In this document: in pieces, positions 1-25,708 of the stretch | How the letters are laid out: every line of letters begins with the position of its first letter | How positions within the stretch are numbered: position 1 is the first letter of the stretch | From: Bacilli bacterium | Lineage (GTDB): Bacteria > Bacillota_I > Bacilli_A > ML615J-28 > CAG-698 | DNA: 64,000 bases | Assembly (NCBI GenBank): GCA_028702495.1 | Contig: JAQVOS010000001.1 | Coordinates: 10,383 to 74,382, forward strand | Reading direction: 5' to 3' | Program-made: the position numbers and the translations under genes | Notes under the pieces: model-generated | What the model saw: only the letters and a program-made list of their open reading frames with translations | Told to the model about the DNA's origin: nothing | The model's database searches: none

Positions 1-123
1 TTGTTCGTAGTTGGAAATCGCTTGACGCGTCAAGGATAAAACCGTCGCAAGTTCACTTTGGGTCATGTCTTTGTTTTTACGCAATCGAGATAAAAAAGCA
101 CCCCATTTTTCGGTATTAAACAT
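1..123 (-). CDS. HTH XRE-family transcriptional regulator, N-terminal part only (gene continues beyond window start)
   Basis: Reverse-strand ATG at 123-121 preceded by GGAGGAA RBS; translation MFNTEKWGAFLSRLRKNKDMTQSELATVLSLTRQAISNYEQ is a typical helix-turn-helix (HTH_3-like) motif. Confidence 0.6.
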   Translation of the reverse strand, partial: MFNTEKWGAFLSRLRKNKDMTQSELATVLSLTRQAISNYEQ

Positions 124-201: not shown

Positions 202-954
202 TCATCCTTTAAGAGTCCACTGTTTCTTTAATATCGATATCAAAAATTCAATGACCATGATAAGAATCATCAGAATAAATGTCCAAGCAAACACTTTTCC
301 CATTTCAAACTGTTGTTTTAAGAACAATAATTCACGACCAATAGAGAGGGTTGGTTGGATGATAAATTCACTCATAATCATGACTTTTAATCCGAGTCCC
401 AATGATTGGATTAACCCCGTAAATAGAAAGGGGGAAATGAGTGGTAAATATACATGACGAATGATAGGAATGTTAATGGTGGATAACATTCGTACATCAT
501 CGAGAATATTGGGATCTATCGAACGATAGCCTTGATAGATGGCTTCATACAACAATGGCAAGACGACAAATCCCGTAATAAACAAGGGACTATATTCATG
601 ACCAATTAAAACGAGCAAAATGATAATAATTGAAGCAACAGGAATGGTTTTTAAAAGGGTGATTTGAGGACGAATGAACGATGCAAAATGAGGATATTTA
701 ATTGAAAGACTCGCAAAAATGAGGGCTAAAACAAACGAGATGAGAACAGCCATTAGAATTCGAAATAAAGTGGTCGCTAAAACAAGGTAGGTATGGGGAA
801 CTATAAGTATTTGTACTAAATCTCGAAGTGTAGACCAGGGCGTTGGAAAGATAATTTCTTGATGAATCGCGAGTGAAGCCACGATCCATATGATGAGAAT
901 CATGATAATCCCCATTCCAAAAGCAAAACGATGTTTACTGAATAAAGTTTTCAT
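202..954 (-). CDS. ABC transporter permease (binding-protein-dependent inner membrane component, nitrate/sulfonate/taurine-type)
   Basis: 250-aa polytopic membrane protein; overlaps downstream end of adjacent substrate-binding lipoprotein gene by 20 nt. Confidence 0.65.
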   Translation of the reverse strand: MKTLFSKHRFAFGMGIIMILIIWIVASLAIHQEIIFPTPWSTLRDLVQILIVPHTYLVLATTLFRILMAVLISFVLALIFASLSIKYPHFASFIRPQITLLKTIPVASIIIILLVLIGHEYSPLFITGFVVLPLLYEAIYQGYRSIDPNILDDVRMLSTINIPIIRHVYLPLISPFLFTGLIQSLGLGLKVMIMSEFIIQPTLSIGRELLFLKQQFEMGKVFAWTFILMILIMVIEFLISILKKQWTLKG

Positions 955-1867
955 CGGGAATATTACCTCCTAAAATTTTAGAATTATAGGTGTTGATCAT
1001 ATTCAAATATTGCGTTAGTTGGGGTTTTATGTTAATACTTCTTGCATAAAAGATTTCACTTCGAGGAATGCTTAAAGCAATCGTTTCTTCGCCTAAACTT
1101 TGAAATAAAGGATATTTGGCAGGATCCAGTTTCACAAGAAGACTCGCGTAACTAGTAGGGTCTTCATTAAGCGCAATCACGTTATCATCAATATCTTCAA
1201 GAAGAGCAAGAATATCCTCATTCAACTCTTTTACAAAAATTCCAGCTTGAGGGATGAAGGCAATATCGTTTTCTAAAACAGTTTGAAGATTGATGATGTT
1301 TAATTCAATTCCCATTTTGTTTTCCAAGTTGGATAACACAGGTTCTGCACATAAAATGTAATCAACTGGTTGTAAACTCATGAACCGGTTGGTTACAACA
1401 TCATTGATGCTTGCTTCATAAACGATGGTTGTATTTACCTCTTGACTTGAAAGCGCTGCTTTTAAAATAATATCAGGAGTATTTCCCTCCCCATAAGAAG
1501 CCACGACTTTACCTTCTAGATCTTCTAGACTTGAAAGCGGGGTTTCTTTACGGCTAACAATATAAGAATTACCTGTCGTGAGGACGGCAGCAAAATGGTA
1601 CTCGGAAGCTCCATTCATATAAAGCTTTGCTGCCGCAGTGATAGGAGCCACAATGACATCATAATGATCTTGGACAAGCTCGCTTGTTAATACGTCAGGA
1701 CCCGATACAATCCGAAACTCTAGATCTTCGCGATCATATAACCCTCCTAAAGCGATGGAAGGAATACCCTCTGGAAACAGGATTGTTAAGGGGGACTTCG
1801 TGTTTTCCTTACAACCACTAACACTAATTGTTAACAAAATTAAGATTAAAACAAGTAACTTTTTCAT
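935..1867 (-). CDS. ABC transporter substrate-binding lipoprotein (NMT1/SsuA-like)
   Basis: N-terminal signal peptide with lipobox (LTISVSGC); size and periplasmic-binding-protein-like composition; operonic with permease. Confidence 0.6.
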   Translation of the reverse strand: MKKLLVLILILLTISVSGCKENTKSPLTILFPEGIPSIALGGLYDREDLEFRIVSGPDVLTSELVQDHYDVIVAPITAAAKLYMNGASEYHFAAVLTTGNSYIVSRKETPLSSLEDLEGKVVASYGEGNTPDIILKAALSSQEVNTTIVYEASINDVVTNRFMSLQPVDYILCAEPVLSNLENKMGIELNIINLQTVLENDIAFIPQAGIFVKELNEDILALLEDIDDNVIALNEDPTSYASLLVKLDPAKYPLFQSLGEETIALSIPRSEIFYARSINIKPQLTQYLNMINTYNSKILGGNIPDENFIQ

Positions 1868-1913: not shown

Positions 1914-1935
1914 TATCGTAACATATGTTACGATA
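1914..1935. promoter_or_regulatory. Perfect 22-bp palindrome TATCGTAACATATGTTACGATA (core GTAAC-N4-GTTAC); candidate Crp/Fnr-family operator in the divergent intergenic region
   Basis: Read directly; same 14-bp core recurs at 1994-2007; geometry resembles FNR-type boxes (5-N4-5). Confidence 0.5.
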
Positions 1936-1960
1936 AAACGTTTTACTTTTCTTACCTACA

Positions 1961-1989
1961 TTGAATAATCAAGAGCTTTGTGCTATAAT
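1961..1989 (+). promoter_or_regulatory. Sigma-A-type promoter for the Crp/Fnr gene: TTGAAT-17bp-TGcTATAAT (extended -10)
   Basis: TTGAAT at 1961-1966, TATAAT at 1984-1989 with TGn at 1981-1983; 17-bp spacer. Confidence 0.55.
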
Positions 1990-1993
1990 TTTG

Positions 1994-2007
1994 GTAACAT
2001 ATGTTAC
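1994..2007. promoter_or_regulatory. Second copy of palindrome GTAACATATGTTAC, immediately downstream of the -10 box (predicted to overlap the transcription start of the Crp/Fnr gene)
   Basis: Read directly; centre-to-centre about 75 bp from first copy. Confidence 0.5.
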
Positions 2008-2019
2008 AAGGGGGATTTT

Positions 2020-2637
2020 ATGAATCCATTATTTGATATGATTGAAGCGAATTTTCCCAATGTTATCACTTATAAAACGTATGAACGCCAGGAAGTGATT
2101 TTTTTAGAACAAGCTTCTTGTAAAGCAGTTGGGTTTATTATAAAGGGGAAAATGCACATTCAAACATTTGGGTGTGGCGAAGATCCTTATATCATCCAAA
2201 CTTTAAATACGGGGGACACCTTTGGCGAAACCCTTCTATTTTCAAATGAAGCCACCTATCTCGGAGTCGGAATTGCGCTCGATAAAATCAAAATTGCTTA
2301 TGTGGGGCGAGGCGATTTACTTCGGATTATGCAAGAGTCTTCTCTCTTTTTAAGAAACTATCTTTTAGTAATGGCTGAAAAAAGCATCCTTCATCAGATG
2401 CGCCTGAAAGTCTTGCTACAAAAAACAATTCGTGATAAAATCCTATTTTCCCTCCATGAGCAAGCAAAAACCCAAGGTTCCCTGACGGTGCGAACACCGA
2501 CAAAAGAAGCTTGGGCAGCTTATCTAAATATTCCTCGTCCATCACTATCCCGTGAATTAATAGTAATGCGAGATGAAGGACTTCTAAAGTTGGACCGATT
2601 CTATGTGACGCTTCTAAAAGAAGTCAGTAACATTTAA
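2020..2637 (+). CDS. Crp/Fnr-family transcriptional regulator (cNMP-binding domain + C-terminal HTH)
   Basis: ATG at 2020 preceded by GGGGGA RBS; beta-roll effector-domain-like N-terminus, C-terminal HTH (…RPSLSRELIVMRDEGLL…); ORF-track N-terminal extension from 1978 lacks RBS. Confidence 0.7.
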   Translation: MNPLFDMIEANFPNVITYKTYERQEVIFLEQASCKAVGFIIKGKMHIQTFGCGEDPYIIQTLNTGDTFGETLLFSNEATYLGVGIALDKIKIAYVGRGDLLRIMQESSLFLRNYLLVMAEKSILHQMRLKVLLQKTIRDKILFSLHEQAKTQGSLTVRTPTKEAWAAYLNIPRPSLSRELIVMRDEGLLKLDRFYVTLLKEVSNI

Positions 2638-4349
2638 ATGGTAATGCTTGTTCTATATAGTTTTTCGTAATAGCCGCCTTGATGAACCAAATCTTGATGA
2701 CGACCTCTTTCTAAAATTCCATTTTGTCCTAAGACAATGATTTCATCAGCATTTTTAACCGTTGATAGACGATGGGCAATGGTGATGGTGGTGCGCCCAG
2801 CCGATAATTCTTCAAGAGATTGCTGAATCAGATTTTCTGTAATATTATCCAGAGATGAAGTCGCTTCATCGAGTATTAATATCCGTGGATTTTTTAAGAA
2901 TAAGCGAGCAATGGCAATGCGTTGCTTCTGTCCTCCTGAAAGTTTAATTCCGCGTTCTCCTACCAACGTATGATAGCCTTCATCTTGACTCATTACAAAG
3001 TCGTGGATGCGGGCTTTTTTTGCAGCCTCGATGATTTCTTCATCTGTGGCATCCACTTTGCCATATAAAATATTTTCACGAATGGTTCCATAAAATATAA
3101 TGACATCTTGTTGAACATGGCCAATGGCGCTGCGAAGATCATCTAAATCATATTCTTTCACATTCACTCCATCGACTAAAATGGCGCCTTCATTGACATC
3201 ATAGAAGCGAGGAATCAGTTTTGAAATGGTTGATTTCCCCACTCCTGTTTCTCCAACTAAAGCCACTTTTTGTCCGGCCTTAATTTTTAAATTAAAGTGA
3301 TTTAAGATATGAGTTGCTTCGCTTTGTTCATATTGAAAACTGACATTCTTAAATTCGATATCACCCTTAAAATTCGTACAATGCTGAGGATTCAAGGGGG
3401 AAACAATTTGAGAATCGATTTCCATCACCTGATAAAACTTTTCTACGCCTGAGAATCCATTTTGTAACTGTTCCATTGAATTGGTAATACGAGCAATCGG
3501 ACGAGTAAGGAAGTGAATGTAGAGGAAGAAGGTGGTTAGTTCAATGATGGTGATATCACCACTAGCGACAAAGAAACTTCCAAAAACAAGCGTAGCCACA
3601 TGGGTAAGATTCATAAAGAAATCATTCCCCGTCGAGTAAAGACCAATCTCACGGAATGTTGTGGTTCTCGCTTTTTTGAATTGCTCATTTATATTTTCAA
3701 ATTTTTCAATTTCCATCTCTTCATTGTTGAAAGCTTTTGTGAGACGAATCCCACTGAGACTACTCTCAGTGATGCTATTGAGTTCTCCTTGAGCAGTACG
3801 AGCCAAACGAAAGCCTTTCAACATTTTACTTCGTCTTGATAATGAATAAATAATCACAAAAGAAACAAAGACAAAAACAATTAAAGTAAGGAGCCAACTC
3901 GTATTTAGGAGAATGAAAAAACTTCCAATGAACATGACAATGGAAATAAAGATATCTTCAGGAACGTGGTGACTCATTTCTGATACATCATGAAGATAAG
4001 TAGTTAGATGCGTCATGAGTTCTCCTGTTTTCTTATCATCATAATACTGATAATCTAGGGATTGAAACTTCTTATATAAATCGCGTCTCATATCGCTTTC
4101 AAGTCGAATCCCCATGATATGTCCATAATATCCAATGATATAGCCTAGGAAGAACTTCAGTCCAAATAAGACAAGCAAAAAGCCCCCTAAAAGCAACACT
4201 GTTTTAGTATCCCCTACAAATTTATATAAGATCTCTTGTGTGACCTGAGGGAAGACGAGGTCAATCCCTGCAACAATCAAAGCACAAAACAAATCGAGGG
4301 TTAACAGTGCCCAATGGGGGCGATAGTAACGAATGAACTTTTTAATCAT
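2634..4349 (-). CDS. ABC exporter, fused permease/ATPase (MsbA/multidrug-like)
   Basis: N-terminal 6-TM domain, Walker A GETGVGKST, ABC signature LSGGQKQR, Walker B ILILDEATS. Confidence 0.85.
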   Translation of the reverse strand: MIKKFIRYYRPHWALLTLDLFCALIVAGIDLVFPQVTQEILYKFVGDTKTVLLLGGFLLVLFGLKFFLGYIIGYYGHIMGIRLESDMRRDLYKKFQSLDYQYYDDKKTGELMTHLTTYLHDVSEMSHHVPEDIFISIVMFIGSFFILLNTSWLLTLIVFVFVSFVIIYSLSRRSKMLKGFRLARTAQGELNSITESSLSGIRLTKAFNNEEMEIEKFENINEQFKKARTTTFREIGLYSTGNDFFMNLTHVATLVFGSFFVASGDITIIELTTFFLYIHFLTRPIARITNSMEQLQNGFSGVEKFYQVMEIDSQIVSPLNPQHCTNFKGDIEFKNVSFQYEQSEATHILNHFNLKIKAGQKVALVGETGVGKSTISKLIPRFYDVNEGAILVDGVNVKEYDLDDLRSAIGHVQQDVIIFYGTIRENILYGKVDATDEEIIEAAKKARIHDFVMSQDEGYHTLVGERGIKLSGGQKQRIAIARLFLKNPRILILDEATSSLDNITENLIQQSLEELSAGRTTITIAHRLSTVKNADEIIVLGQNGILERGRHQDLVHQGGYYEKLYRTSITI

Positions 4350-5110
4350 AATGAATCTCTTTCTCCTAAGTAATCAAAAATAGCGTCTATTAATTTCTGG
4401 TTATTGGTTGACAATAACATGAGATGTGTAATGTCATCAAATATTATCTTTTTCTTTTCAGGGCTTAAACAAAATTGGTACACTTCTTCAACTGAACCAC
4501 GTGGAACCAATTGATCCAGTTCTCCCCATAAGATGAGTGTGGGAATATTGTAAGGCTCAATGGATGAGGTGACTCGTTTAATGATTTTTCGAAAAGCTAA
4601 AAAGTATTTAGGAAGAGCGGTAACGAGAAAAGCTCTAGCTCCAAAATGAAGCGATTTTTTATCATCTTCAAAAACAAAACTTAGCTTTTTAGCAAATTTA
4701 TTTTCTTTTGAAGTTTCATGTTCCTTTTTTGCTTTTTTCAATCCTTTGAGAATGCGCCAATATATGGCTGCTTTCACGATGGGAGCTTCCAAGTTGAAAT
4801 ACTTATAAGCTGGAGCAAGTAAAACAAGACGATGGATGGGGTATTTTGATGCCAAATAAGCCCCTAACGCTCCTCCCATCGAATATCCAATAACATCAAT
4901 CGTTTGATATTTTTTTGCTAATTCTTGATAGGTTTTATCTAATAAAGCGAAGGTAGCTTCTTCAGTAAATTTTTCTTTACCAAACGCGATCCCGTGCCCA
5001 GGAAAACAAATTCGATGAACATAATCGTATTGTTTATTCAAGTCTTCAATGATGGGTTCAAAATCGTGTTTATCACTTAGAAATCCATGGAGAAGGAGAA
5101 TACATTTCAT
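4346..5110 (-). CDS. alpha/beta-fold hydrolase (esterase/lipase-like)
   Basis: Nucleophile elbow GYSMGG; start HGFLSDKHDF typical of the fold; 4-nt overlaps with both neighbours. Confidence 0.7.
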   Translation of the reverse strand: MKCILLLHGFLSDKHDFEPIIEDLNKQYDYVHRICFPGHGIAFGKEKFTEEATFALLDKTYQELAKKYQTIDVIGYSMGGALGAYLASKYPIHRLVLLAPAYKYFNLEAPIVKAAIYWRILKGLKKAKKEHETSKENKFAKKLSFVFEDDKKSLHFGARAFLVTALPKYFLAFRKIIKRVTSSIEPYNIPTLILWGELDQLVPRGSVEEVYQFCLSPEKKKIIFDDITHLMLLSTNNQKLIDAIFDYLGERDSL

Positions 5111-6036
5111 AGAGCTTCTTCTTTCACAGGTTCTGGTTTTTTGGTGAATAATTTAATGATGCGGTTCGGAATAAAACTGACAACATCCTTCATAACAACT
5201 GGAAGAGTTTGCATCGATTCTTTAATGGCTTCGCGACGAATGGCTGTTTTTGTTGCATCTTTTACATCAGAGAATAAATATCGACGTGTAATAAACCCTA
5301 TTCGAAGTGTAAGTAGAGCATTTGATATTCCTTGAAGAATAGACGATGCAATGGGTTTCATCAAAGGAATATCAGCGAAGAAATTCACTGTTGATTGAGG
5401 AAAGATATCATTAAAATCAAGTCCTTCTAATGTTTCAGCAACAAGAGCTGTTCCAACAACATTCAAGGATAGTTTTCCCAGCCGAGCATACGAAGGACGA
5501 AACCCACACTTCAAGACGATTTCTTTAATCATCTTCAAATTGACGGATAAAACGGTGAACATATCTAGTTTCCCATTTTGCGAAATGGCAGTTGAAATCA
5601 TGACGGTGGTTGCGTTACGAATAATGATGTTACGAATCTCTTTTTTAATGGCTGTATTAAAGACGTTGTTTAAAGCCACTCTTAATTCTTCTTTGTCCTT
5701 AAAACTATTATTGAGAGTTGTGGCTTCTTCTGTCGTTAAGACATTATTTTCGATGATATTTTTCGCCACACGTTTATAAACTTGAGTTCGTTTTTGATTG
5801 TTTTCTTCCATGGTGGTCGTAATGGAAAATGTTGGGGCGAAGAGTATGATACGAACGGGGTTAATAATTAAGAAATACACTAAGATGGTATAAAGTGCAT
5901 AAAAACCATACTCTACATATGGATGAAGAGTTCGTAGTTTTTCCCCAAGTGATATCGCTGAACTAATCATCATGAGAAGAACAATGATACCAACACCGAT
6001 TAAAATTAAAATCCAAAAACGATTGCGCTTATTCAT
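5107..6036 (-). CDS. YcjF/DUF697-family membrane protein
   Basis: Two N-terminal TM helices followed by a region resembling E. coli YcjF (…RNATTVMISTAISQNGKLDMFTVLSVNLKMIKEI… / …LTLRIGFIT…). Confidence 0.5.
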   Translation of the reverse strand: MNKRNRFWILILIGVGIIVLLMMISSAISLGEKLRTLHPYVEYGFYALYTILVYFLIINPVRIILFAPTFSITTTMEENNQKRTQVYKRVAKNIIENNVLTTEEATTLNNSFKDKEELRVALNNVFNTAIKKEIRNIIIRNATTVMISTAISQNGKLDMFTVLSVNLKMIKEIVLKCGFRPSYARLGKLSLNVVGTALVAETLEGLDFNDIFPQSTVNFFADIPLMKPIASSILQGISNALLTLRIGFITRRYLFSDVKDATKTAIRREAIKESMQTLPVVMKDVVSFIPNRIIKLFTKKPEPVKEEAL

Positions 6037-6045
6037 TTTGATCTC

Positions 6046-7671
6046 CTATTTTTTGCTATTTTTTTCCATCCAACCACTAATATCACTAGGATGCATTGGT
6101 CGTGCAAAGTAATACCCCTGTCCATAATCACATCCCATTTCAATAAGTGTATTAAGGATTTCCTTGGTTTCAATTCCTTCTGCTACGACTGCATATCCCA
6201 TATCATGGGCTAAGTCAATGATGGCTTTCACTAAGATTCTTGTATTGTTATTATTTACAATGTTCATGGTAAAACCACGATCAATTTTTATCTTTTTAAT
6301 TGGTAAATCACGAAGATACGCAAGGGATGAATACTCATTTCCAAAATCATCTAGTACGATGGATATTTTTTCAAGGGATAACGTTTTTAGCATGTTTTCT
6401 GCTGCTTGTTTGTTTAGCATTAGAGTGGATTCGGTAATCTCTACTTCAATCGCATAGTCTGGAAGAGCGGCCATTCTAATTTTTTCAACGATGGATTCAA
6501 TTAGGAGTGGCTCATATAAATTCCGCTGTGATATATTAACAGATATCACAAAATTGCTTCCTGTGAAATCATAAGTTTTGTAATCAGATATGACTTTCAT
6601 GCAAACCCATTCTGTGATTTGGTTAATGAGGCGTGTTTTTTCAGCGAGAGGTATAAACCCTCCTGGATAAAGGATGTTATTTTTATGTTGCCATCGTACT
6701 AAAGCTTCCATGCCTTGACAAGTATTTGTTTTCAAATCAACAATGGGTTGATATGTCATAAATAGTTGATTTTCTTTAATGGCTTGTGGTAGTTCCCCCA
6801 ATAATATAAAAGAACTTTGATCTTTTTCATGTGATTGATTATATATGGCATGTTTTAAAAAATGTTTTTTTGCATACATAGATGCAACATCGCTTTCATG
6901 AAAGCGATCCACAATATCATCTGGATTACCCGTTAAACTGACGCCAATAGAATAGTCAATATAAAGGGGAATGGTTCCACTCACAAGATTCATTTGTTCA
7001 AGATAAGCCATGAAAGGTTCAATCACGTGGTGGTATTCTTCGTGTGATAGTTCAATCCAAAAGCGTCGTTCATCAACAAAGACAGCATAAGCTTCGGGGC
7101 TTAGAAAGTTACAAATCAGTTGATGCATTTTTGCAAGAATGGCTCCATAAGCTTCATTTCCAATTAAGACAATTAATTCTTCATGATTATTAATTTGGAG
7201 CGTTAAAGCAACAAAAGGATTTGGATTATCGTTGTCTCGTTTTGCTTCTAAATAATAATTAACATTGGGAATGTTTGTTAAAACATCATGGGTATGATGT
7301 AAATGAAGGATTGCTAATTGCTTCTTCAGAAATAACAATAGATCCCCCATGGTGATTCCTATCAAAACAAAATAAAATGTTCGATATAATGAACTAGAAA
7401 ATTCTTCCCCATGACCTGGTAAAAGAACATACGTCATGAGGGGACCTATCAATAAGCCCGCAATAATTCCCGTAACACCAGCAACCCATGGACCCAAAAA
7501 TACAGCAGCAATTAACACTGTAAGATACATAGTATGTGCGAAAGCGCTTGGAATACCACCTGTAATATACACAAGAAAAGTGTTTAAAATAAGAGAAAAA
7601 GCAATGATTGCAATCGAGACGCGTTTGGCTTTTCGACCAGGATTCATAATAAACTTCAATATTTTGTTCAT
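6046..7671 (-). CDS. Membrane-anchored c-di-GMP phosphodiesterase: N-terminal TM domain, degenerate GGDEF-like middle domain, C-terminal EAL domain
   Basis: EALVRW motif and downstream EAL-domain blocks (…EITES…, …DDFGNEYSSLAYL…, …IKIDRGF…); no intact GG(D/E)EF motif in the middle domain. Confidence 0.8.
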   Translation of the reverse strand: MNKILKFIMNPGRKAKRVSIAIIAFSLILNTFLVYITGGIPSAFAHTMYLTVLIAAVFLGPWVAGVTGIIAGLLIGPLMTYVLLPGHGEEFSSSLYRTFYFVLIGITMGDLLLFLKKQLAILHLHHTHDVLTNIPNVNYYLEAKRDNDNPNPFVALTLQINNHEELIVLIGNEAYGAILAKMHQLICNFLSPEAYAVFVDERRFWIELSHEEYHHVIEPFMAYLEQMNLVSGTIPLYIDYSIGVSLTGNPDDIVDRFHESDVASMYAKKHFLKHAIYNQSHEKDQSSFILLGELPQAIKENQLFMTYQPIVDLKTNTCQGMEALVRWQHKNNILYPGGFIPLAEKTRLINQITEWVCMKVISDYKTYDFTGSNFVISVNISQRNLYEPLLIESIVEKIRMAALPDYAIEVEITESTLMLNKQAAENMLKTLSLEKISIVLDDFGNEYSSLAYLRDLPIKKIKIDRGFTMNIVNNNNTRILVKAIIDLAHDMGYAVVAEGIETKEILNTLIEMGCDYGQGYYFARPMHPSDISGWMEKNSKK

Positions 7672-7870
7672 ACTGTATAATCTCCTACTCCAAAAATGGA
7701 TTCTTGAGCGTATATCTTAATCTTATCATATCAAGAAATGCGCTTCTTGTCAATTCAAAACTATGCCTAATATATACTTTTTCATCAATCAATAGTCATA
7801 TAGAATTACAATTTTATTGTCGATTTCTTCGTAAGATGTCTCTTCATACAAACTTTTTATACACTGTCAT

Positions 7871-7898
7871 ATAAAAAGTAGGCCGTTGACGCCTACTT
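7871..7898 (-). terminator. Rho-independent terminator for lipoprotein gene (stem AAGTAGGC/GCCTACTT, U-run on minus strand)
   Basis: 8-bp stem, 7-nt loop, A-run 7871-7877 on plus strand (= T-run on minus). Confidence 0.55.
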
Positions 7899-7943
7899 GT
7901 GAAATGTTTTTATAATAATGGTATTGAATGAACTTTCATGAAC

Positions 7944-8816
7944 TTATTCAATGGAGAAATTTCTAATATAGATACCGATGGACTGAATATCAGGATCACT
8001 TAAAACACTAAAATACTGATTGATTTCTTCCATGGTACATATTTCATAGGTTATAATAAGAATATATACTCCAATAGAAGTGGTAATTCCTTCTTCTTCC
8101 ACCCCATATAAATCATATTTTTCTTGCATATAAGCATCACGCGTGTTGTTATCATACCCTTTAGGATCCATTAAGAGAACAACTTCGACATTCACAAAGG
8201 GATGAGAGAGCCTCTCTTCTACTTTAGTTATATCAGCTGGAAAGTTAAAATACTCAACGACTGCAACTTGAGTCGTTTCACCAACCACGGACTCTAGTCC
8301 TTTAATTAGATCATATTGAATAGCAAAGTAATACTCCCTTGGAGCATATAGACATATAGCTACTTCTGGTCTTTGCATATTTGCATGAACCGTGAGGATC
8401 CCATCTTCATGAAACAGGTGATGAATAACAACTTTGGTCCCCACAACGTGATCAAACTCAATGAAGAGAATTAAACCCTTTTTTTCAAAATAAGCTTCGT
8501 TATAAAAGGTGTTATCATATCCCGATTCAATAAATTCTTCATAGGATTCAAAGTGGATTAGGATGGGATAATCTATTCCTGGTTCAACCTGATGAGGTGA
8601 AGATTGAGCGAGTCGAGGATATGTCCCCATAGTAAAGGGAATCACTCCTTCCGTATCACTATGAACGAAATGTTCTTCTGAATCTATGGCCGTCTCTTCT
8701 TTTGAATATTGATTTTTATCATCATTGATAAGCGAATCTTGTGCCGGAAGTGTGCATCCTGTTAGTATTCCTAATGCAACGATAACCATCAATATTTTCC
8801 TAATTACTTGTTTCAT
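7944..8816 (-). CDS. Hypothetical lipoprotein
   Basis: Signal peptide with lipobox LTGC; no recognisable catalytic motif. Confidence 0.5.
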   Translation of the reverse strand: MKQVIRKILMVIVALGILTGCTLPAQDSLINDDKNQYSKEETAIDSEEHFVHSDTEGVIPFTMGTYPRLAQSSPHQVEPGIDYPILIHFESYEEFIESGYDNTFYNEAYFEKKGLILFIEFDHVVGTKVVIHHLFHEDGILTVHANMQRPEVAICLYAPREYYFAIQYDLIKGLESVVGETTQVAVVEYFNFPADITKVEERLSHPFVNVEVVLLMDPKGYDNNTRDAYMQEKYDLYGVEEEGITTSIGVYILIITYEICTMEEINQYFSVLSDPDIQSIGIYIRNFSIE

Positions 8817-8899
8817 CAGTCTAGCCTTCTTTCATTTGATAATACGAAGAAGACCTTTTGATTATTGGAAAAATGTTTAATGTTGTTGTTTTTTCATCT

Positions 8900-9682
8900 T
8901 CAATGAGTCGTTTCTTTAAAGAAGGCTTGTGTAAGAATTGGCAAAGTGATATCTTCTTTTACATTTTTAATAAATGTTGCCAATTCTTCTACATCAAAAT
9001 CTTGTAATGTTTTCCCCTTTTTTGAAGTTGCTGCCTTTGCATTACCCACATAATGATGAGGATAATTGGCATACCAACTAAGCCCTGTGAATAAGTTGGG
9101 AATGTGAGATAGACGCATTAAGGGCGTTACTTCTCCATCAGAGATCTCATTCATATGGATGAGATGTGGGTGATTCGCAAGAGAGATGCTGGTTTCGCAC
9201 TCACAAGCATGACCATGCCATTTCGTTGTCCTTACACTTTGATATAATTTGGTACGTGCTTCCGAACCTGGCTGATATAAATATAGCTGATAATCACGTT
9301 CTTTATCGAGTTGAGATTGGGCAAGGAATGTTAAAAAGGCGTTGTTGCCCCCATGGCCATTCACAAGAATGATTTTTTTGATACCATTACGACCCATCTC
9401 ATCAAGAAGCGATTGGACGAGTTCCATCAAAAGAGAACTTTTTATTGCAATGGTTCCTGGAAAACAGCGTGCTTCTAAAATCTGCCCGAAATAAAAGGGA
9501 GGAAAAACAAGAACCTCTTCTTTTTCACTGGCAAGTACCGCTAAGCGATGAACATTTAAAAAATCAGTTCCCAAAGGAAGATGATCTCCATGTTTTTCTA
9601 ATACTCCAAAGGTTAGAACACAAACAGGATTTCGTGTAACAACTTCATGAAATTGCTTTGATGTTAATTCTTCCCATTTCAT
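8900..9682 (-). CDS. Creatininase-family (creatinine amidohydrolase-like) metal-dependent amidase
   Basis: Family-typical blocks …LEKHGDHLPLGTD… and …VNGHGGN…; about 260 aa. Confidence 0.7.
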   Translation of the reverse strand: MKWEELTSKQFHEVVTRNPVCVLTFGVLEKHGDHLPLGTDFLNVHRLAVLASEKEEVLVFPPFYFGQILEARCFPGTIAIKSSLLMELVQSLLDEMGRNGIKKIILVNGHGGNNAFLTFLAQSQLDKERDYQLYLYQPGSEARTKLYQSVRTTKWHGHACECETSISLANHPHLIHMNEISDGEVTPLMRLSHIPNLFTGLSWYANYPHHYVGNAKAATSKKGKTLQDFDVEELATFIKNVKEDITLPILTQAFFKETTH

Positions 9683-9723
9683 ATATTATACTTCCTTTCA
9701 ATCAATTGATTCAATACAAAAAT

Positions 9724-10782
9724 TTATGAGTTAAGCAATATCTTTCTTACATAGTGTGAACTCATGCATTGTAATAGGCTTGCATAATCTAAAGAAAACG
9801 AAACAATGTCTCCGAGATGATATGTGTTGTCTTCTAATTGAATGATGAGATAATCACTATTTGACTCGAGCGATTTGATTGTCGAATCATGAGGTGTTAA
9901 ATGATTGTGATCAACATCTTGCTTTCCAATCGCAAGAATTGCACGATTCATTTCCCCACTGTTGCGAAGGATTGGCGTTTCGCCAAATGCATTTATCGAG
10001 AGGGTCCCAATCGGATGGGATGGTTTTCTTTGTATCTCCACAATCTCTGCTTCTAGTGTAAAAGCATCCTGAAACATGCCTGGAATCAAGTTACCAAAAG
10101 CTGTTTCTCGTCCCAAAAAAATCGCTTCACCAATGCGAAGATTATTAATTTGGCTAGGTAGATTATCAAGCATATAAAGGGTGGATGAATTCCCTCCTGA
10201 CACAAGATCAAGATGAATTTCAAATGCATTTTCAATTTTGTTTTTGATATCAACTAGGATTCCCATGTTCACTTGATCGGGAATAACTCCCTCTAGGCAA
10301 GTTAAATTTGTTCCGATTCCTTTTAAATGGATATTAGGGAGATGAAGAATGGCCTTAATAAGCGGCATATAATCTTCTTTATAAAACACGCCTTCACGTA
10401 AATCGCCCAAGTCAAACATGAGGATAACGTCATAATTTTTCTCTTGGCGGAATGCTTCTTGCGAAAGGGCTTCGATTGTCTTTATTTCCGATACCAAAGC
10501 AAGTGAAGAATACTTTATAACATCTTTGATTTCACTCAACATCGGAATTCTTGTGAGAGCTTTTGGTATCGAAAATTCTTGAAATTTTTTTAAATTGTCC
10601 ATCCGGGAATCAGCTAAATAGGTAAAACCTAGTGGGGCTAAAGCCCCTAGAACTTCTTTATATCCTGCTAACACTTTTCCCACCAAAAAGATTGAAGATA
10701 CGCCGTGACGTTTACACAATGATAAAATTGTTTGTGCGTTTGATATCAATTTAGGTAAAGATATCATGATTCGTGGAAACAT
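9724..10782 (-). CDS. orr: Ornithine racemase (PLP-dependent, alanine-racemase fold)
   Basis: Start ATG (MFPRIMISLPKL…) with GGGAGGA RBS embedded in the 3' end of the upstream gene; alanine-racemase-like size (352 aa); last gene of the ornithine cluster as in Clostridium sticklandii. Confidence 0.65.
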   Translation of the reverse strand: MFPRIMISLPKLISNAQTILSLCKRHGVSSIFLVGKVLAGYKEVLGALAPLGFTYLADSRMDNLKKFQEFSIPKALTRIPMLSEIKDVIKYSSLALVSEIKTIEALSQEAFRQEKNYDVILMFDLGDLREGVFYKEDYMPLIKAILHLPNIHLKGIGTNLTCLEGVIPDQVNMGILVDIKNKIENAFEIHLDLVSGGNSSTLYMLDNLPSQINNLRIGEAIFLGRETAFGNLIPGMFQDAFTLEAEIVEIQRKPSHPIGTLSINAFGETPILRNSGEMNRAILAIGKQDVDHNHLTPHDSTIKSLESNSDYLIIQLEDNTYHLGDIVSFSLDYASLLQCMSSHYVRKILLNS

Positions 10783-12146: not shown

Positions 12147-14326
12147 AAAACTTCTTCCATTTTTTTCATTAAGAAAGTCGCAACATGGGCTCCTTTGGTT
12201 CCACGACCAAAACCAGCGTCGACTCCTTGCTTAATGGCAAGGTCATGAGTCACTTGGGTTCCACCCACAACGAAAATCAAACTTTTACGAACCCCTCGTT
12301 CAATGGCATACTCATGTAGTTTCTTCATATTCAAGTAGTGAACATCATTATGCGAAATAATGGTTGACATGAGAATGGCTTGAGATTTGGTTTCAATGGC
12401 AGCATCAATGAATTTTTGAATGGGAACAGATGTTCCAAGATATTCTACTTCAATTCCATATTTTTCGATACCACCATGTTTGATATCGATGATTTCTCTT
12501 AAGCCAACAGAATGCTCATCTTCTCCTGCGGTACCAGCAACAATCTTACAATGGTGTGTTTTAAAAAAACTTGTTAACTCTTCATCACTTGCAACATAGG
12601 GTTCTTCACGAAGCGTGAGGGTTGATGTATCTATACTAAAACTCACACGTCCTTTGATTTGAATCCGCGTTCCTTCGGATGGATGAAGGATTTCTTTATG
12701 AATAATTTCAACATCAAGCAAGTTCATTTTCTTTCCAATTTCAAGACTTGCTGCTTCTGCTAGTCTTAAACTGGTTGGAAGTGTGATATCAACGACCACA
12801 ATTCCATCGCCACACCACTGGACTTCTGGTATAATCTCGGAAGTGTTGCGATAGGGAGCCACTTCTTCAAGCCGATGATGAACATTATCCTCATCGAGTT
12901 CATCGATGAATATAATCTTATTGGGGTCTTCAAAAGTAGAACCCCCAATTAAATCCGAAGGATTCTTGACGCCATATAGTTCATAATGATTGACCCCAAA
13001 ATGAGCGGTAACAGGGGCTAAATAATCTGGATCACGTTTATAAATGGTATTTGCACCCACGCCGCTCTGTTCACGTCTTACGATGCCATCCCCATTTCTT
13101 TCAGGATAAAATCCTGAATCCACGAAGAACCCTGCTTCAACAGCCGCAAAGTATCCACCCGCTTCAAGAAGTTCTTCTAAAAAGAGAACCGCTCTTTCTT
13201 TTAATTCGCGAACACGAATCTTCATGATGCCTTCATGACGAACTTCAACCAACTCCTTTAATCCATCAAGACCTGCAAATGCTTGTTTTGCGGTATCACA
13301 TGCTTCAATATTGTACATATGCCATGGAACATTTCGTCCCTCATCAGGCGTTATCGTCGATTGAATATCTGCAGATGTTAGGGTAGAAATAAGAAGATTC
13401 ATGACATGGGTCACGGTTGCTTCACGAGTTGAAGACTCCATGTATTTTGTATTCATTTGAGCACGAATTTTAAATGCATCAAAAAACTCTCTTAATGCCA
13501 CCGCATAAGGTAAGTTAATTCGTAAATCAGGTGCAGGAGGTGCAATCGGTGGCACTGAAGACAGGGCTATTAAATCAGATTTCATGCCAACTTTTAATGA
13601 GAATGCGCAATTTATCGCATGCTGAACGAGAAGTTCAGGCATGACTTTCCATGCAATCTTGGCGGTAGCATTCGCATTATGGGCTCCATCAATCTGAAGC
13701 ATATTTGCCCACGCCATAATGTGTTTTGACTCTGCAGCATCAACAAATGAACGAACCATATTAATATTTCGATATAAGACATTATATTGAGGGTCCTGGT
13801 GAGCTCCATTAACGCCTTCTTCAGCAAACATGACAGCAATCTCAGGACCTGCAACACCCGATACATAGGAGTGATAATTGATCGGACGACCCACTTCATC
13901 TTCAATCAAATCGAGTGCTTTTCTCTGCGCTCGGACTTGTTTTCTTGTAATGGGAATACCTCCAACTCCTTGCGGTGTTCCTTCAATGAGTCCGTCAAAA
14001 TGAGATTGGCCTGCGGTACGAATGACCATCATATGATCGGCTCCATGCCACGCTGCCATCCTCATGCGTCGAATATCATCTTCGAAACGTCCTGAAGCAA
14101 TTTCGGTTGTAATGGTTTGAATGGGCTGAGGATCAATGGACCCTACATATTTGGCTGCAGGAAGAGGGATACTTTCCTTTAAATTTTTTGAAGTGTTGTA
14201 ATAAATATAATCATTTAATTTTTGATGTTTGACCGCTTCACGCCATACCCACCCTCTTCTTCGGGGGCGATAGTTCTCAAGATTGGCGAGAATCTTTTCA
14301 ATATTAATGGGGGTATCTTTATTCAT
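12143..14326 (-). CDS. oraE: D-ornithine 4,5-aminomutase subunit E (PLP- and adenosylcobalamin-binding)
   Basis: 727 aa from ATG at 14326 (GGAGGT RBS); C-terminal Rossmann-type B12-binding domain (…LIFVVGGTQVTHD…); upstream small oraS. Confidence 0.75.
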   Translation of the reverse strand: MNKDTPINIEKILANLENYRPRRRGWVWREAVKHQKLNDYIYYNTSKNLKESIPLPAAKYVGSIDPQPIQTITTEIASGRFEDDIRRMRMAAWHGADHMMVIRTAGQSHFDGLIEGTPQGVGGIPITRKQVRAQRKALDLIEDEVGRPINYHSYVSGVAGPEIAVMFAEEGVNGAHQDPQYNVLYRNINMVRSFVDAAESKHIMAWANMLQIDGAHNANATAKIAWKVMPELLVQHAINCAFSLKVGMKSDLIALSSVPPIAPPAPDLRINLPYAVALREFFDAFKIRAQMNTKYMESSTREATVTHVMNLLISTLTSADIQSTITPDEGRNVPWHMYNIEACDTAKQAFAGLDGLKELVEVRHEGIMKIRVRELKERAVLFLEELLEAGGYFAAVEAGFFVDSGFYPERNGDGIVRREQSGVGANTIYKRDPDYLAPVTAHFGVNHYELYGVKNPSDLIGGSTFEDPNKIIFIDELDEDNVHHRLEEVAPYRNTSEIIPEVQWCGDGIVVVDITLPTSLRLAEAASLEIGKKMNLLDVEIIHKEILHPSEGTRIQIKGRVSFSIDTSTLTLREEPYVASDEELTSFFKTHHCKIVAGTAGEDEHSVGLREIIDIKHGGIEKYGIEVEYLGTSVPIQKFIDAAIETKSQAILMSTIISHNDVHYLNMKKLHEYAIERGVRKSLIFVVGGTQVTHDLAIKQGVDAGFGRGTKGAHVATFLMKKMEEVL

Positions 14327-22310: not shown

Positions 22311-23864
22311 TCACTTCCTTTTCTTGATAATCTTGTCAGCAGCTAATTTTCCTGTCAAAATCGAAACAGGCATTCCAGCAGGACTAAAAGTCCATTGACC
22401 GCATTGATAGATGTGGGGGATGGTTGTTCGAATGGATTTTCTAATTTGGGGAAAACGATGTTCTGAAGGGATGACCTCATTCGCAAATGACCACCCTGTG
22501 ATGGCTCCATCTGCATTAGAAGTTAATGATTCAATCGTAAGCGGTGTCGAACAACTTTCAAAAACAATCAAGTTTGATAAATCTGGAAGAACACTTTTTT
22601 CTAGAACATCTTTCACTTTTTTAAGAATAAACTTTTTAAATTCTTCCATTTGACGATGATCACTAAAACGTGCTGTCAAATCATAATCAAATAGTGTGCT
22701 AACAATCAAGCTCGATTGCCCATCGGGAGCAAGAGATGGATCCCTTAGTGAGGGACAAGAAATTTCATAAGTTGTATAATCCAAATATTGACTCACCCAT
22801 GTAGATAGATTAGGTGCATCTTTCCAAGTAGAAAGGTTGTGTAGTCCTCGCGAATCAGGAGTATAAAAGCTGTGGATTCCCACATACTTTAATAGCTTTT
22901 CACTATTCATGCGAATGCCAAAATAACAGGTTAGAATCGAATCACTACCATGGCTTTTATTCATTAAAGCACTTAACTTTCTTCCTTTTCTTGAAGGAAG
23001 ATGAGCGAGATTGCGATAAAGAGTCTTAATATTCGCAGCCCACACCAAATCATGATATCCAATGACTTCTTTTGCCTCGGTTGTAATGGTTTTTTGTTTT
23101 TGATCGACTGCTATCACACGTGTTTTACAAGCGATCTCGCCACCATATTTTAGGATCACTTCTTCTAATTTTTTTGTAAGCGTTCCTGTTCCTCCTAAAG
23201 GATAGCGATAATCCGTATAAAACCCAAAATAACTCAGAGCAAAGAAAGCAGGCGTGTTTTTAAAAAAGTGCTGAGTAATCATATCGATTAAAGATTGGTT
23301 CTGAGTAAATTGTTTAAGATAAGTTACGACATCTCCGTGAAAGGCTTTCACCTTTTTCATACTACGATTATATTTGATAAGCCATGGAAGAAGGGTGTGA
23401 AGCAGATACTTAGAATCTAGCTTTCCTTCTAAAAACAAGGGGTTTTCGATTCCATATAAAACATCCATATACATCATGACTTGTCGTATTTTTTCAGTAA
23501 TAATGTCAATGGCATTTTTTTCATCAGGAAAATGCGATTTCAAAAGTTTGGCATAGTCATTCAATGATTCTTTATTGTCAATGGAAATCATATCATTTTT
23601 GATTCCAATCTGAACAGGATTCGAAATAAATGTCATATCAATTCCTAAGGACTTAATCATTGGTAATAGAATTCCTGAATCTTCAAACGCACGAATCCCC
23701 TGATCAAAAGAAAATCCTTCGCGTTCAAATGTTCCGACAAGCCCACCTACTTTTTCTTGTTGTTCACATAAGAGAACACGTACACCCGCCTTGGCAAGAT
23801 AGGCAGTGGCAGTTAATCCAGCAATGCCACCCCCTACAACAATCACATCATAGGAACGCATCAT
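22311..23864 (-). CDS. FAD-dependent desaturase/oxidase of the phytoene-desaturase (CrtI/CrtN/CrtP) family
   Basis: N-terminal dinucleotide fold VIVVGGGIAGLTA; about 517 aa as for CrtN/CrtP. Confidence 0.7.
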   Translation of the reverse strand: MMRSYDVIVVGGGIAGLTATAYLAKAGVRVLLCEQQEKVGGLVGTFEREGFSFDQGIRAFEDSGILLPMIKSLGIDMTFISNPVQIGIKNDMISIDNKESLNDYAKLLKSHFPDEKNAIDIITEKIRQVMMYMDVLYGIENPLFLEGKLDSKYLLHTLLPWLIKYNRSMKKVKAFHGDVVTYLKQFTQNQSLIDMITQHFFKNTPAFFALSYFGFYTDYRYPLGGTGTLTKKLEEVILKYGGEIACKTRVIAVDQKQKTITTEAKEVIGYHDLVWAANIKTLYRNLAHLPSRKGRKLSALMNKSHGSDSILTCYFGIRMNSEKLLKYVGIHSFYTPDSRGLHNLSTWKDAPNLSTWVSQYLDYTTYEISCPSLRDPSLAPDGQSSLIVSTLFDYDLTARFSDHRQMEEFKKFILKKVKDVLEKSVLPDLSNLIVFESCSTPLTIESLTSNADGAITGWSFANEVIPSEHRFPQIRKSIRTTIPHIYQCGQWTFSPAGMPVSILTGKLAADKIIKKRK

Positions 23865-25708
23865 TATGACTCCTCCTTTTTGATATATTTCATAATCTTC
23901 TCTATTTGAATTCCAACTCCGCCTTCACGACACCAAATACAACGTTCTTCGAACGTATGTATTGCATCAAAAGAAACCTTGCTTTTAGCAAGAGCTTTTT
24001 TAGCTCCCTGCCAATTACCGAGGACGACTCGACGCATGATGCCACGAGCATCGAGGTCATGCACTCTAACACATGTTGGATGTTCACATAGGCGACAACG
24101 ATTGGCTTCTTCACGAATCGTGCGTTCTTCTTTTGAAGATTCACGGAATAACTCGCTTTTTTTAAAAGGGGGAGCAACAAGATGTACTTGTTCTTTGATA
24201 TTGGAATCAAACACAAAAGGCACCATTTTATATTTTCTCAAAATCACATTGGCTGCAGTTAATCCTGAGGTAGTAACCGTAGGCGTCCCTGTCCCCATGA
24301 CAGTGGATTCTCCAGAACAAAAAACATTACTCCATTTTGTTCTAATATGTTGACGATGGAACATATGTTGTCCTAACATTTGTTTTGGTCCCGCCACCGC
24401 TCCCTTATTTTTAAGGCAATAACGTTCAATGGTTCTTGGGGTTGCAAGTTCTGTATAGCGTACTTCCTTTTTGAAGCCTGGAAAACGACGTTCAATCACA
24501 TCAAGAAGTCGTTTAACTTCTTTATCTTTTTGAGTGCGATAAGTTTCTTTATTATGTGACCACTCTTCAAATGAAGGTCCAACAGCGATGACAATGTGCT
24601 CATCCTCTTGACATAATGTTTTATCATCAATCGACATAATATACAAGGTAACTTCACTTTCATCGAGTTGTTTAGGATTTCCAACTACCATTTCAATGGC
24701 GGCAGTATCATCAGGTATAACACTTTTAGAAACAGCGGTATATAAGACGACACTTGGGTACGTTGGCACTTGCTTTCTAAAAGTTTCACGAATTTTTAGG
24801 CTTGTTAAAGAAGGGTCTATTAATTTATCATAGAAATTCCAAACAGTTCCTGTATAAACGATATCGCGAGCAGACAAAGTGGTGCCATCATCTAAAAGAA
24901 CACCTGTGGCTTCGTTTTTCTCAAATAAAATCTTTTCGACTTCATGAGAATAGATCATATCTCCCCCGTGTTCTTCAATGACTTTCTCGAGTTTTCCAGG
25001 TAGATAAAGGGTTGAGCCTGCAGGGTAGTAACTACCTCCTACATGATTATCAACAAACATGACTGCTGCTAAAACAGCAGGAGCTTCTTCCACAGTTGCA
25101 TAACAGTAAGTAGAGGTTAGTTTATCGAAAAAATTAAAAATCTCTGGATTTTTAAAATATTGCTTCAGTAAACTTTTGGCACTTTGATTGAGTAAACTTA
25201 AAAATTTAATATAGGAAAAGGGATGTTTTAACATGCTTTTTAAAGCCAGCCTCGGGTTCGTTTCCTCAGGACTTGTATAGGTGGGATTCTCAACCATAAC
25301 ATGGGTGTACATCCTCATCATATCGCGATAAAACCGATGAATGTTTCCCGCTTCATCGGGAAATACACCGGCTAGTTCATCTGCAAATTTTTCTACATCA
25401 GCCCAAAAACGAATTCTTTTGCCTTCATAATTGACAACATATAATAAATCATGTTTGATGATATCGATGGGTTCTTCTAACACGTTGAAGACAAAACGAT
25501 GAGCATTAAATCCGCGTTCACCAAATCCATACAACATCGTTGATCCTTGATCAAAGATTCGATTTCCCCTTTTAAAGATTCCACAAGATCCTCCAGGGTT
25601 ATAGTTGTTATCAATCACTCCAACTTTCAGTCCTCTTTTTGCTAATAAACTTCCGGCGGTCAATCCTGAAAGTCCGCCACCAATGATTAGTACATCATAA
25701 TTTATCAT
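23864..25708 (-). CDS. Phytoene-desaturase-family FAD oxidoreductase with C-terminal cysteine-rich (putative Fe-S, GltD/NfnB-N-terminal-like) extension
   Basis: N-terminal VLIIGGGLSGLTA FAD fold; about 500-aa desaturase core plus a roughly 110-aa tail containing CRLCEHPTC…GNWQGAKKAL…CIWC. Confidence 0.6.
   Translation of the reverse strand: MINYDVLIIGGGLSGLTAGSLLAKRGLKVGVIDNNYNPGGSCGIFKRGNRIFDQGSTMLYGFGERGFNAHRFVFNVLEEPIDIIKHDLLYVVNYEGKRIRFWADVEKFADELAGVFPDEAGNIHRFYRDMMRMYTHVMVENPTYTSPEETNPRLALKSMLKHPFSYIKFLSLLNQSAKSLLKQYFKNPEIFNFFDKLTSTYCYATVEEAPAVLAAVMFVDNHVGGSYYPAGSTLYLPGKLEKVIEEHGGDMIYSHEVEKILFEKNEATGVLLDDGTTLSARDIVYTGTVWNFYDKLIDPSLTSLKIRETFRKQVPTYPSVVLYTAVSKSVIPDDTAAIEMVVGNPKQLDESEVTLYIMSIDDKTLCQEDEHIVIAVGPSFEEWSHNKETYRTQKDKEVKRLLDVIERRFPGFKKEVRYTELATPRTIERYCLKNKGAVAGPKQMLGQHMFHRQHIRTKWSNVFCSGESTVMGTGTPTVTTSGLTAANVILRKYKMVPFVFDSNIKEQVHLVAPPFKKSELFRESSKEERTIREEANRCRLCEHPTCVRVHDLDARGIMRRVVLGNWQGAKKALAKSKVSFDAIHTFEERCIWCREGGVGIQIEKIMKYIKKEES

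Follow-up and report, generated by a model that had tools for sequence, protein, structure and literature searches.

Predicted HcpR2-type operators between a Crp/Fnr-family regulator gene and an ATPase-less transporter operon in uncultured Bacilli

The 64-kb stretch of contig JAQVOS010000001.1 analysed here (hereafter the window; positions are numbered from its first letter) comes from the metagenome-assembled genome of an uncultured Bacilli bacterium and carries near its left end two divergent transcription units. On the minus strand lies a short transporter operon, in which the first gene encodes a lipoprotein substrate-binding protein (SBP; 310 amino acids, 935–1867) and the second an ABC importer permease of the BPD_transp_1 family (250 amino acids, 202–954) whose gene overlaps that of the SBP by 20 nt. 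On the plus strand is the gene for a Crp/Fnr-family regulator of 205 amino acids (2020–2637), its ATG preceded by the ribosome-binding site (RBS) AAGGGGGA. The 152-bp intergenic region holds two exact copies of the 14-bp sequence GTAACATATGTTAC, termed box 1 (1918–1931) and box 2 (1994–2007), which lie 76 bp apart. We consider it likely that both boxes are operators of the adjacent regulator, and that box 1 acts in activation of the SBP–permease operon and box 2 in autorepression of the regulator gene.

The original prediction described a perfect 22-bp palindrome and a 14-bp copy of its core, and both were present when the sequence was read: TATCGTAACATATGTTACGATA occupies 1914–1935, enclosing box 1, and the core returns as box 2. 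This core, of the type GTAAC-N4-GTTAC, is found nowhere else in the window. In 100 dinucleotide-preserving shuffles the exact pattern GTAAC-N4-GTTAC occurred on average 0.02 times and none of the 100 reached the two copies seen in the 64 kb. Allowing up to one mismatch raised the count to 5 against 0.77 expected, and the extra three (28882, 38353 and 50309) lie inside open reading frames (ORFs). Along with weaker matches at 12423, 23314, 24358, 41314, 47739, 49734 and 50415, these were not counted as a regulon; those that were mapped sit inside ORFs.

The window motif is identical in every letter to GTAACnnnnGTTAC, which Rodionov et al. (2005, PLoS Comput Biol 1:e55; PMC1274295) published as the consensus of the HcpR2 branch within the Crp/Fnr family, and one or two perfect copies are present in every orthologous intergenic region. 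The same study linked that motif to a recognition helix in which the glutamate of CRP position 181 has given way to proline (PMC1274295). The helix of the window regulator reads I-P-R-P-S-L-S-R-E-L and, when mapped by eye onto the RETVGR numbering of CRP, has Arg at 180, Pro at 181 and Ser-Arg at 184–185. The same stretch is invariant in 29 aligned homologues found by a route other than the peptide pattern IPRPSLSREL, a search that is itself biased by its use of exact five-residue words. Across 27 sites the ten specified bases of the motif are invariant (27/27) with no compensatory changes, and the spacer is nearly always A-T/A-A-T. This conservation of the bases GTAAC/GTTAC themselves argues for recognition by a protein and not for RNA pairing. 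The palindromes would then be operators of a known kind, HcpR2-type boxes, with predicted binding by the regulator encoded at 2020–2637. The earlier description of a 5-N4-5, FNR-type architecture of the Crp/Fnr family agrees with this identity of the boxes to a published consensus and with the matching helix next door; its reading of the motif stood, but it had overlooked that the motif was already named and published. The motif, its recognition helix and placements for activation and autorepression are all known, and the cis-element needs no new concept.

Both Pfam domains expected of such a regulator were seen, cNMP_binding with an E-value of 8e-10 and HTH_Crp_2 at 25.3 bits, just below its cut-off of 27. 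The only cysteines are C34 and C53; there is no CX2CX5C, that is, the N-terminal cysteine cluster of FNR is missing. We class the protein as HcpR2-like from its Pfam domains, recognition helix, conserved sensor residues, structure matches and position in a tree. The solved structure closest to the family profile was 1o5l, a crp-family protein of Thermotoga maritima with the helix R-P-A-L-S-R. It is probably the hcp-adjacent TM1171, although a literature search for TM1171 or 1O5L gave nothing of relevance. The second match was Listeria Lmo0753 (PDB 7t8o; helix I-T-R-P-S-L-S-R-E-L). The Lmo0753 helix is nearly the same as that of the window regulator, and by the helix-motif rule this protein may also read GTAAC-type boxes. 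The third, 9day (E 7.6e-26), has the helix N-R-Q-S-L-A-R, which fits the HcpR of Porphyromonas gingivalis with its Gln at 181, and is probably that protein. At its 3′ end the regulator gene overlaps by 4 nt (2634–2637), stop end to stop end, a convergent ABC exporter gene (2634–4349, minus strand, MsbA-like by NCBIfam), and there is no terminator-like site between the two. The same exporter family stands downstream of the regulator in L002, L082, L091 and L092 of the orthologous loci described below.

Upstream of the SBP gene, the predicted -10 hexamer on the minus strand is TAAAAT (1890–1895), 22 nt from the edge of box 1. The position at which a -35 element would be expected (1918–1913) reads CGATAA, a 1/6 match to TTGACA, and there is no TG extension. 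The operon would start at about 1883, and its leader, some 16 nt long, would include the RBS AGAGGT. With the -10 at 22 nt and the start 7 nt beyond it, the centre of box 1 (1924.5) falls at -41.5 by sequence geometry, which is the class II activation position. Spacing between box and -10 was exactly 22 nt on the target strand at 60 of the 72 perfect boxes over all loci, compared with a background of about 4 per offset, and was seen for SBP, hcp (Prismane), frdX-like and other targets, including the Clostridium hcp boxes; a TATAAT takes up the same offset at the orthologous loci. Class II promoters dependent on CRP or FNR in Escherichia coli have a site centred at -41.5 that replaces the -35 element. 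The likeness extends to a dimer palindrome, a fixed -10 spacing and a poor or absent -35, whereas the window host is of the low-GC Gram-positive type, its start site is a predicted one and its regulator has no characterised activating regions. Experimentally, HcpR has been shown to activate hcp in C. difficile and in P. gingivalis (PMC12750200). Because of the 22-nt geometry, the missing -35 and the activation of hcp by HcpR relatives, we read box 1 as a putative activator site of the SBP–permease operon. The original prediction had placed this copy 50–70 bp upstream of the start of the ABC operon, in accord with a centre 57.5 bp from the SBP start codon, and was also right to have it serve the divergent operon, but the exact class II geometry had escaped it.

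The near-consensus promoter claimed for the regulator gene was present as TTGAAT (1961–1966), a 17-nt spacer and TGcTATAAT (1981–1989) on the plus strand, an extended -10 promoter that scored 10/12 in the consensus scan with the TG in place. Transcription would start at about 1996. Only 4 nt separate the -10, which ends at 1989, from box 2, which would span about -2 to +12 across the predicted start. The TGnTATAAT element is kept in most orthologues with a single box and in two orthologues with both boxes, L089 (90% identical) and L002 (64% identical); box 2 is also kept in these two. Of the 21 loci with one box, about 17 have it 9 nt downstream of a TGnTATAAT on the plus strand, where it would cover about +4 to +17 of the regulator promoter. 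These positions bear out the autorepression placement that had been proposed, and box 2 is therefore a predicted autorepression operator of the regulator gene. The predicted 5′ untranslated region (UTR) of the regulator mRNA can form, at 1994–2030 on the plus strand, a box 2 hairpin and another one whose loop holds the AUG and whose stem takes in part of the RBS (-8.7 kcal/mol, z -2.2).

A genome scan, with one genome per species, retrieved 80 loci when an alignment was used as query; a single regulator protein as query had retrieved no relatives. The divergent SBP–permease/regulator layout recurred in 22 of the 80, each with a perfect GTAAC-N4-GTTAC in an intergenic region of 49–176 bp, and all 22 come from metagenome-assembled genomes (MAGs) labelled Bacilli, Acholeplasmatales, Anaeroplasmataceae, 'Mollicutes', Coprobacillus and similar. 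An independent start from SBP homologues (30–46% identity) led to the same trio, with no ATPase, one perfect box and a divergent Crp/Fnr gene, embedded in neighbourhoods as unrelated as a ribosomal protein operon, FtsX-type genes and ABC exporters. Regulator, SBP and permease stay together, always with a perfect box, in about 28 loci of uncultured Bacilli and Mollicutes-like MAGs. At Clostridium loci the regulator gene is followed by the box and then by a Prismane-family gene (hcp), or the box separates it from a divergent gene for a 4Fe-4S ferredoxin-like protein, the arrangement described for HcpR2 (Rodionov et al., 2005; PMC1274295). An Izemoplasmatales MAG has an HcpR2-like regulator gene divergent from radical-SAM and radical-SAM plus BATS genes that are HydE/HydG-like by domain content (L081, 2387–4953); a perfect GTAACATACGTTAC box lies 22 nt from a TATAAT there, suggesting a further non-hcp target.

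Two forms of the intergenic region can be distinguished. In one-box orthologues the two divergent -10 hexamers are 7 bp apart. The two-box form was seen in the window, L089 and L002, where the intergenic region measures 152–173 bp and the promoters are about 113 bp apart, whereas L091 (53% identity) and L092 (44%), which are more distant, show the compact arrangement with a single box. Alignment of the three two-box regions showed that both 14-bp cores and both -10 elements are kept while the sequence and length of the spacer diverge; the extension of box 1 to 22 bp is not kept across orthologues, only its 14-bp core. This comparison supports the splitting of one dual-purpose box into two in the sub-lineage of the window as the promoters drifted apart, and the window would have two copies because its separated promoters each have their own. 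In many LysR-type divergent pairs a single operator activates the target and represses the regulator gene. The one-box orthologues would be alike in this respect, since their one site is centred at -41.5 for the target and also covers about +4 to +17 of the regulator promoter that lies back to back with it, whereas the present regulators belong to the Crp/Fnr family and in the window lineage the two functions would fall to two boxes 76 bp apart.

The gene pair that would be controlled from box 1 is itself unusual. The SBP has a signal peptide with the lipobox VSGC and a type II fold of the NMT1/SsuA/ThiY kind. A profile search of the PDB returned 3hn0, the uncharacterised Parabacteroides SBP BDI_1369, at an E-value of 1.7e-24, and a model made with AlphaFold2 from an alignment of database homologues (pLDDT 94.6) gave the same protein as its top Foldseek match (E 4.5e-20, TM 0.77–0.86), followed by SBPs that bind thiamin, sulfonate, hydroxymethylpyrimidine (HMP) or pyrroloquinoline quinone (PQQ), namely SsuA, ThiY and PqqT among others. 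No curated family cut-off was reached and no ligand was named by NCBIfam, the PDB profile search or AlphaFold2 with Foldseek, so that the placement is at family level. The family is tiny, with 59 matches at E<1e-5 among 5.8 billion proteins. Residues D70, Y90 and Y102 are nearly invariant and E175 is invariant, and these four suggest a ligand that may be polar or heteroaromatic and not a simple oxyanion. The permease matched SaoP and SsuC weakly. No ATPase is encoded in the operon, and tblastn with importer-type ATPases across the window found only the nucleotide-binding domains of fused exporters; neither was an ATPase gene seen beside the SBP–permease pair in about 28 orthologous loci. The pair without an ATPase was recorded in the window (202–1867, minus strand) and in L002–L023, L043, L058, L069, L078, L082, L085, L087, L089 and L091. 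A Tissierellia locus, L014, does have an SBP–permease–ATPase arrangement. The 'ABC importer operon' of the original prediction, with its SBP, permease and divergent crp/fnr-like gene, was thus present but needs a caveat, as only the SBP and the permease are there. In SBP fold and BPD_transp_1 permease the pair resembles the NitT/TauT-family importers SsuABC, TauABC and ThiXYZ, and it differs from them in having no ATPase gene; presumably it uses an ATPase encoded elsewhere. The gene after the permease encodes an XRE-type helix-turn-helix regulator (1–123, minus strand) that runs off the left end of the window. Its promoter, GTGACA-17-TATAAT with a TG (184–156, minus strand, 11/12), outscores every other promoter-like match within the first 4.5 kb, which argues that the XRE gene is transcribed separately from the permease.

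We propose that a dimer of the regulator in its DNA-binding form would sit on box 1 and recruit RNA polymerase to the -35-less promoter by class II activation, switching on the operon for the lipoprotein SBP and the permease. The same active regulator on box 2 would cover the start of its own strong extended -10 promoter and block transcription, a form of negative autoregulation. In the one-box orthologues a single bound dimer, together with the polymerase recruited to the SBP promoter, could shut the regulator promoter, given -10 elements 7 bp apart.

What the regulator responds to is the least certain part of this model. Its relatives suggest nitric oxide (NO) or nitrosative stress as the signal. 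In a neighbour-joining tree of 88 regulators, built with no bootstrap and no wider Crp/Fnr outgroups, the SBP-linked proteins formed one clade that was sister to the hcp/frdX-linked Clostridium clade, and they are 30–35% identical to Clostridium HcpR2. The sensor residues E30, C34, G43, F68-G69, F74 and Y80 are common to both clades, C34 being present in 100% of SBP-linked and 96% of hcp/frdX-linked members, and this sharing makes it more likely that both sense by the same chemistry, which would speak for NO or nitrosative stress. FNT/Asr-linked paralogues, which have a CRP-like helix, lack all of these residues. In seven Clostridium loci (L024, L026, L032, L035, L037, L040 and L046, at about 4900–10000) the HcpR2-type gene is followed by such a paralogue, with the helix K-R-E-T-V-S-R, and then by genes for a formate/nitrite-family channel and an AsrABC-like sulfite reductase; no GTAAC-N4-GTTAC was seen there.

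Compared with the HcpR2 regulon, which occurs in Clostridia, Thermotogales, Bacteroides and Treponema (PMC1274295), the window system has the same motif, helix signature and domain architecture, likewise no FNR-type cysteine cluster, and the 22-nt spacing of the Clostridium hcp and frdX-like boxes, but its local target is an SBP–permease pair and not hcp or frdX, its regulator belongs to a separate clade and it has a second box for putative autoregulation. The HcpR of P. gingivalis is a heme-based NO sensor that ligates heme via Met68 and has hcp as its target (PMC12750200). It is likewise a Crp/Fnr activator with a beta-barrel sensor and acts from a palindromic box that lies upstream of its target promoter (PDB 6np6/5v30), and the family profile matches its sensor domain at an E-value of about 1e-10. 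Its residue 181 is Gln and its DNA motif differs from that of HcpR2 (PMC1274295), in contrast to the Pro at 181 and the HcpR2 motif of the window system, and the predicted target here is the SBP–permease pair instead of hcp. In the titles, abstracts and passages seen of the literature that mentions HcpR2, no transporter target is described, and a literature search for HcpR in Mollicutes returned nothing relevant.

Several points weigh against the model as a whole or against NO as its signal. The helix is the same in both clades of the loci set, but since the peptide pattern IPRPSLSREL served to retrieve these 80 loci, helix invariance there is partly by construction; the linkage of box and neighbouring genes among them was not built in by that pattern. 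The positions of -41.5 for box 1 and of -2 to +12 for box 2 depend on -10 hexamers read from AT-rich sequence, and on start sites predicted from them. Box 1 lies at about -71.5 from the predicted start of the regulator gene, a class I position from which a positive effect on that gene could be exerted. We keep such a role only as a caveat, the distance not being conserved (about -90.5 in L002). The predicted autorepression is not universal in the clade, as the long intergenic regions of L017 and L023 carry a box at the SBP promoter alone. No hcp (Prismane) or frdX-like gene turned up in the window, whether by Pfam on the ten largest ORFs or by a tblastn search that used Hcp and FrdX-like proteins of Clostridium, and the roughly 5 kb around each SBP-linked orthologue had none either. 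The link to nitrosative stress is drawn by homology, and the T. maritima relative 1o5l lacks the E and C residues, so that these are not universal sensor residues. Several other sensor-domain positions also set the SBP-linked clade apart from hcp-linked HcpR2, namely 28 (F versus A), 54, 65 and 81–83 (Y-L-G versus Y-P-A-T), and the SBP-linked proteins are shorter, with no C-terminal extension.

One explanation for these last differences is that the architecture is as proposed but the sensor has been re-tuned, its effector being the transported substrate or a metabolite, so that the system would serve substrate-induced uptake and not a response to NO. The trio moves as a unit among unrelated neighbourhoods, as is typical of a dedicated transporter–regulator pair, and the absence of hcp near any SBP-linked locus, the altered sensor positions with the lost extension, and an SBP fold nearest to binders of heteroaromatic cofactors and sulfonates would all fit. 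We regard this as possible but on balance doubtful, as the sensor residues under the strongest conservation recur in the hcp/frdX-linked clade and so point to one chemistry for both, and the searches named no ligand.

Another possibility, which we hold to be improbable, is that the regulator is a pure repressor at both boxes, with box 1 occluding the -35 region of the SBP promoter, box 2 occluding the start of the regulator promoter and a ligand releasing both sites. Some members of the Crp/Fnr family do repress, box 1 overlaps the would-be -35 location and box 2 stands where repressors classically bind. However, an SBP promoter with neither a -35 nor a TG extension looks activator-dependent, and its 22-nt spacing is shared with HcpR-activated hcp promoters; a repressor would need no such rigid helical phasing.

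It has also to be considered that the palindromes could be structural or RNA elements, box 1 a bidirectional terminator or hairpin and box 2 a 5′-UTR hairpin affecting the stability or translation of the mRNA. The consensus scan flagged 1911–1938 as terminator-like on both strands, this segment folds at -12.6 kcal/mol (z -5.5), and the fold of the regulator 5′ UTR noted above is of the same tendency. The terminator reading fails because box 1 is upstream of both divergent genes, with no transcript to terminate, and the box 1 stem has only three G-C pairs, its flank pairing is broken in L089 where the 14-bp core alone is conserved, and the GTAAC/GTTAC bases do not covary at any of the 27 sites; we consider RNA function very improbable. 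Binding by a different factor such as an XRE-type protein, for which an XRE-family gene after the permease in the window and in L002 could be cited, or an origin of the sites as remnants of mobile elements or restriction-modification systems, is similarly remote, since the XRE gene is missing from most loci that keep the box while the Crp/Fnr gene is in all, the same motif tracks the same helix beside hcp in Clostridium, and no repeats or transposase genes flank the region.

New here are the target, an ATPase-less SBP–permease pair in a conserved trio, the lineage, and the transition from one box to two. Perhaps, and we put this forward only tentatively, an HcpR2-like clade was uncoupled from hcp in Mollicutes-related Bacilli and came to form a mobile three-gene module with an ATPase-less SBP–permease pair, in which either nitrosative stress induces uptake of a compound required for the repair of NO damage, for example a cofactor or a source of sulfur, or sensing was re-tuned to the imported ligand, the HcpR2 DNA code being kept and one operator being split into two. 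Under the favoured model an unannotated SBP–permease pair, confined to poorly known, uncultured lineages of Bacilli, Acholeplasmatales and Izemoplasmatales-like bacteria, would gain a regulator, an operator and a probable mode of control. It would also widen the predicted regulon, with the HcpR2 DNA code and its rigid 22-nt geometry reaching beyond hcp to a transporter and, in the one Izemoplasmatales locus, to HydE/HydG-like genes, and would provide a clean natural example of a dual-function operator between back-to-back promoters that is resolved into two when the promoters drift apart. Should NO prove to induce the module, the compound that it imports would open a new view of how anaerobes of gut and rumen, with their reduced genomes, handle nitrosative stress.

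Elsewhere in the window, and unrelated to these findings, are a gene for an EAL-domain protein of the cyclic di-GMP phosphodiesterase type (6046–7671) and two tandem genes for flavin amine-oxidase/phytoene-desaturase-like proteins (22311–25708).

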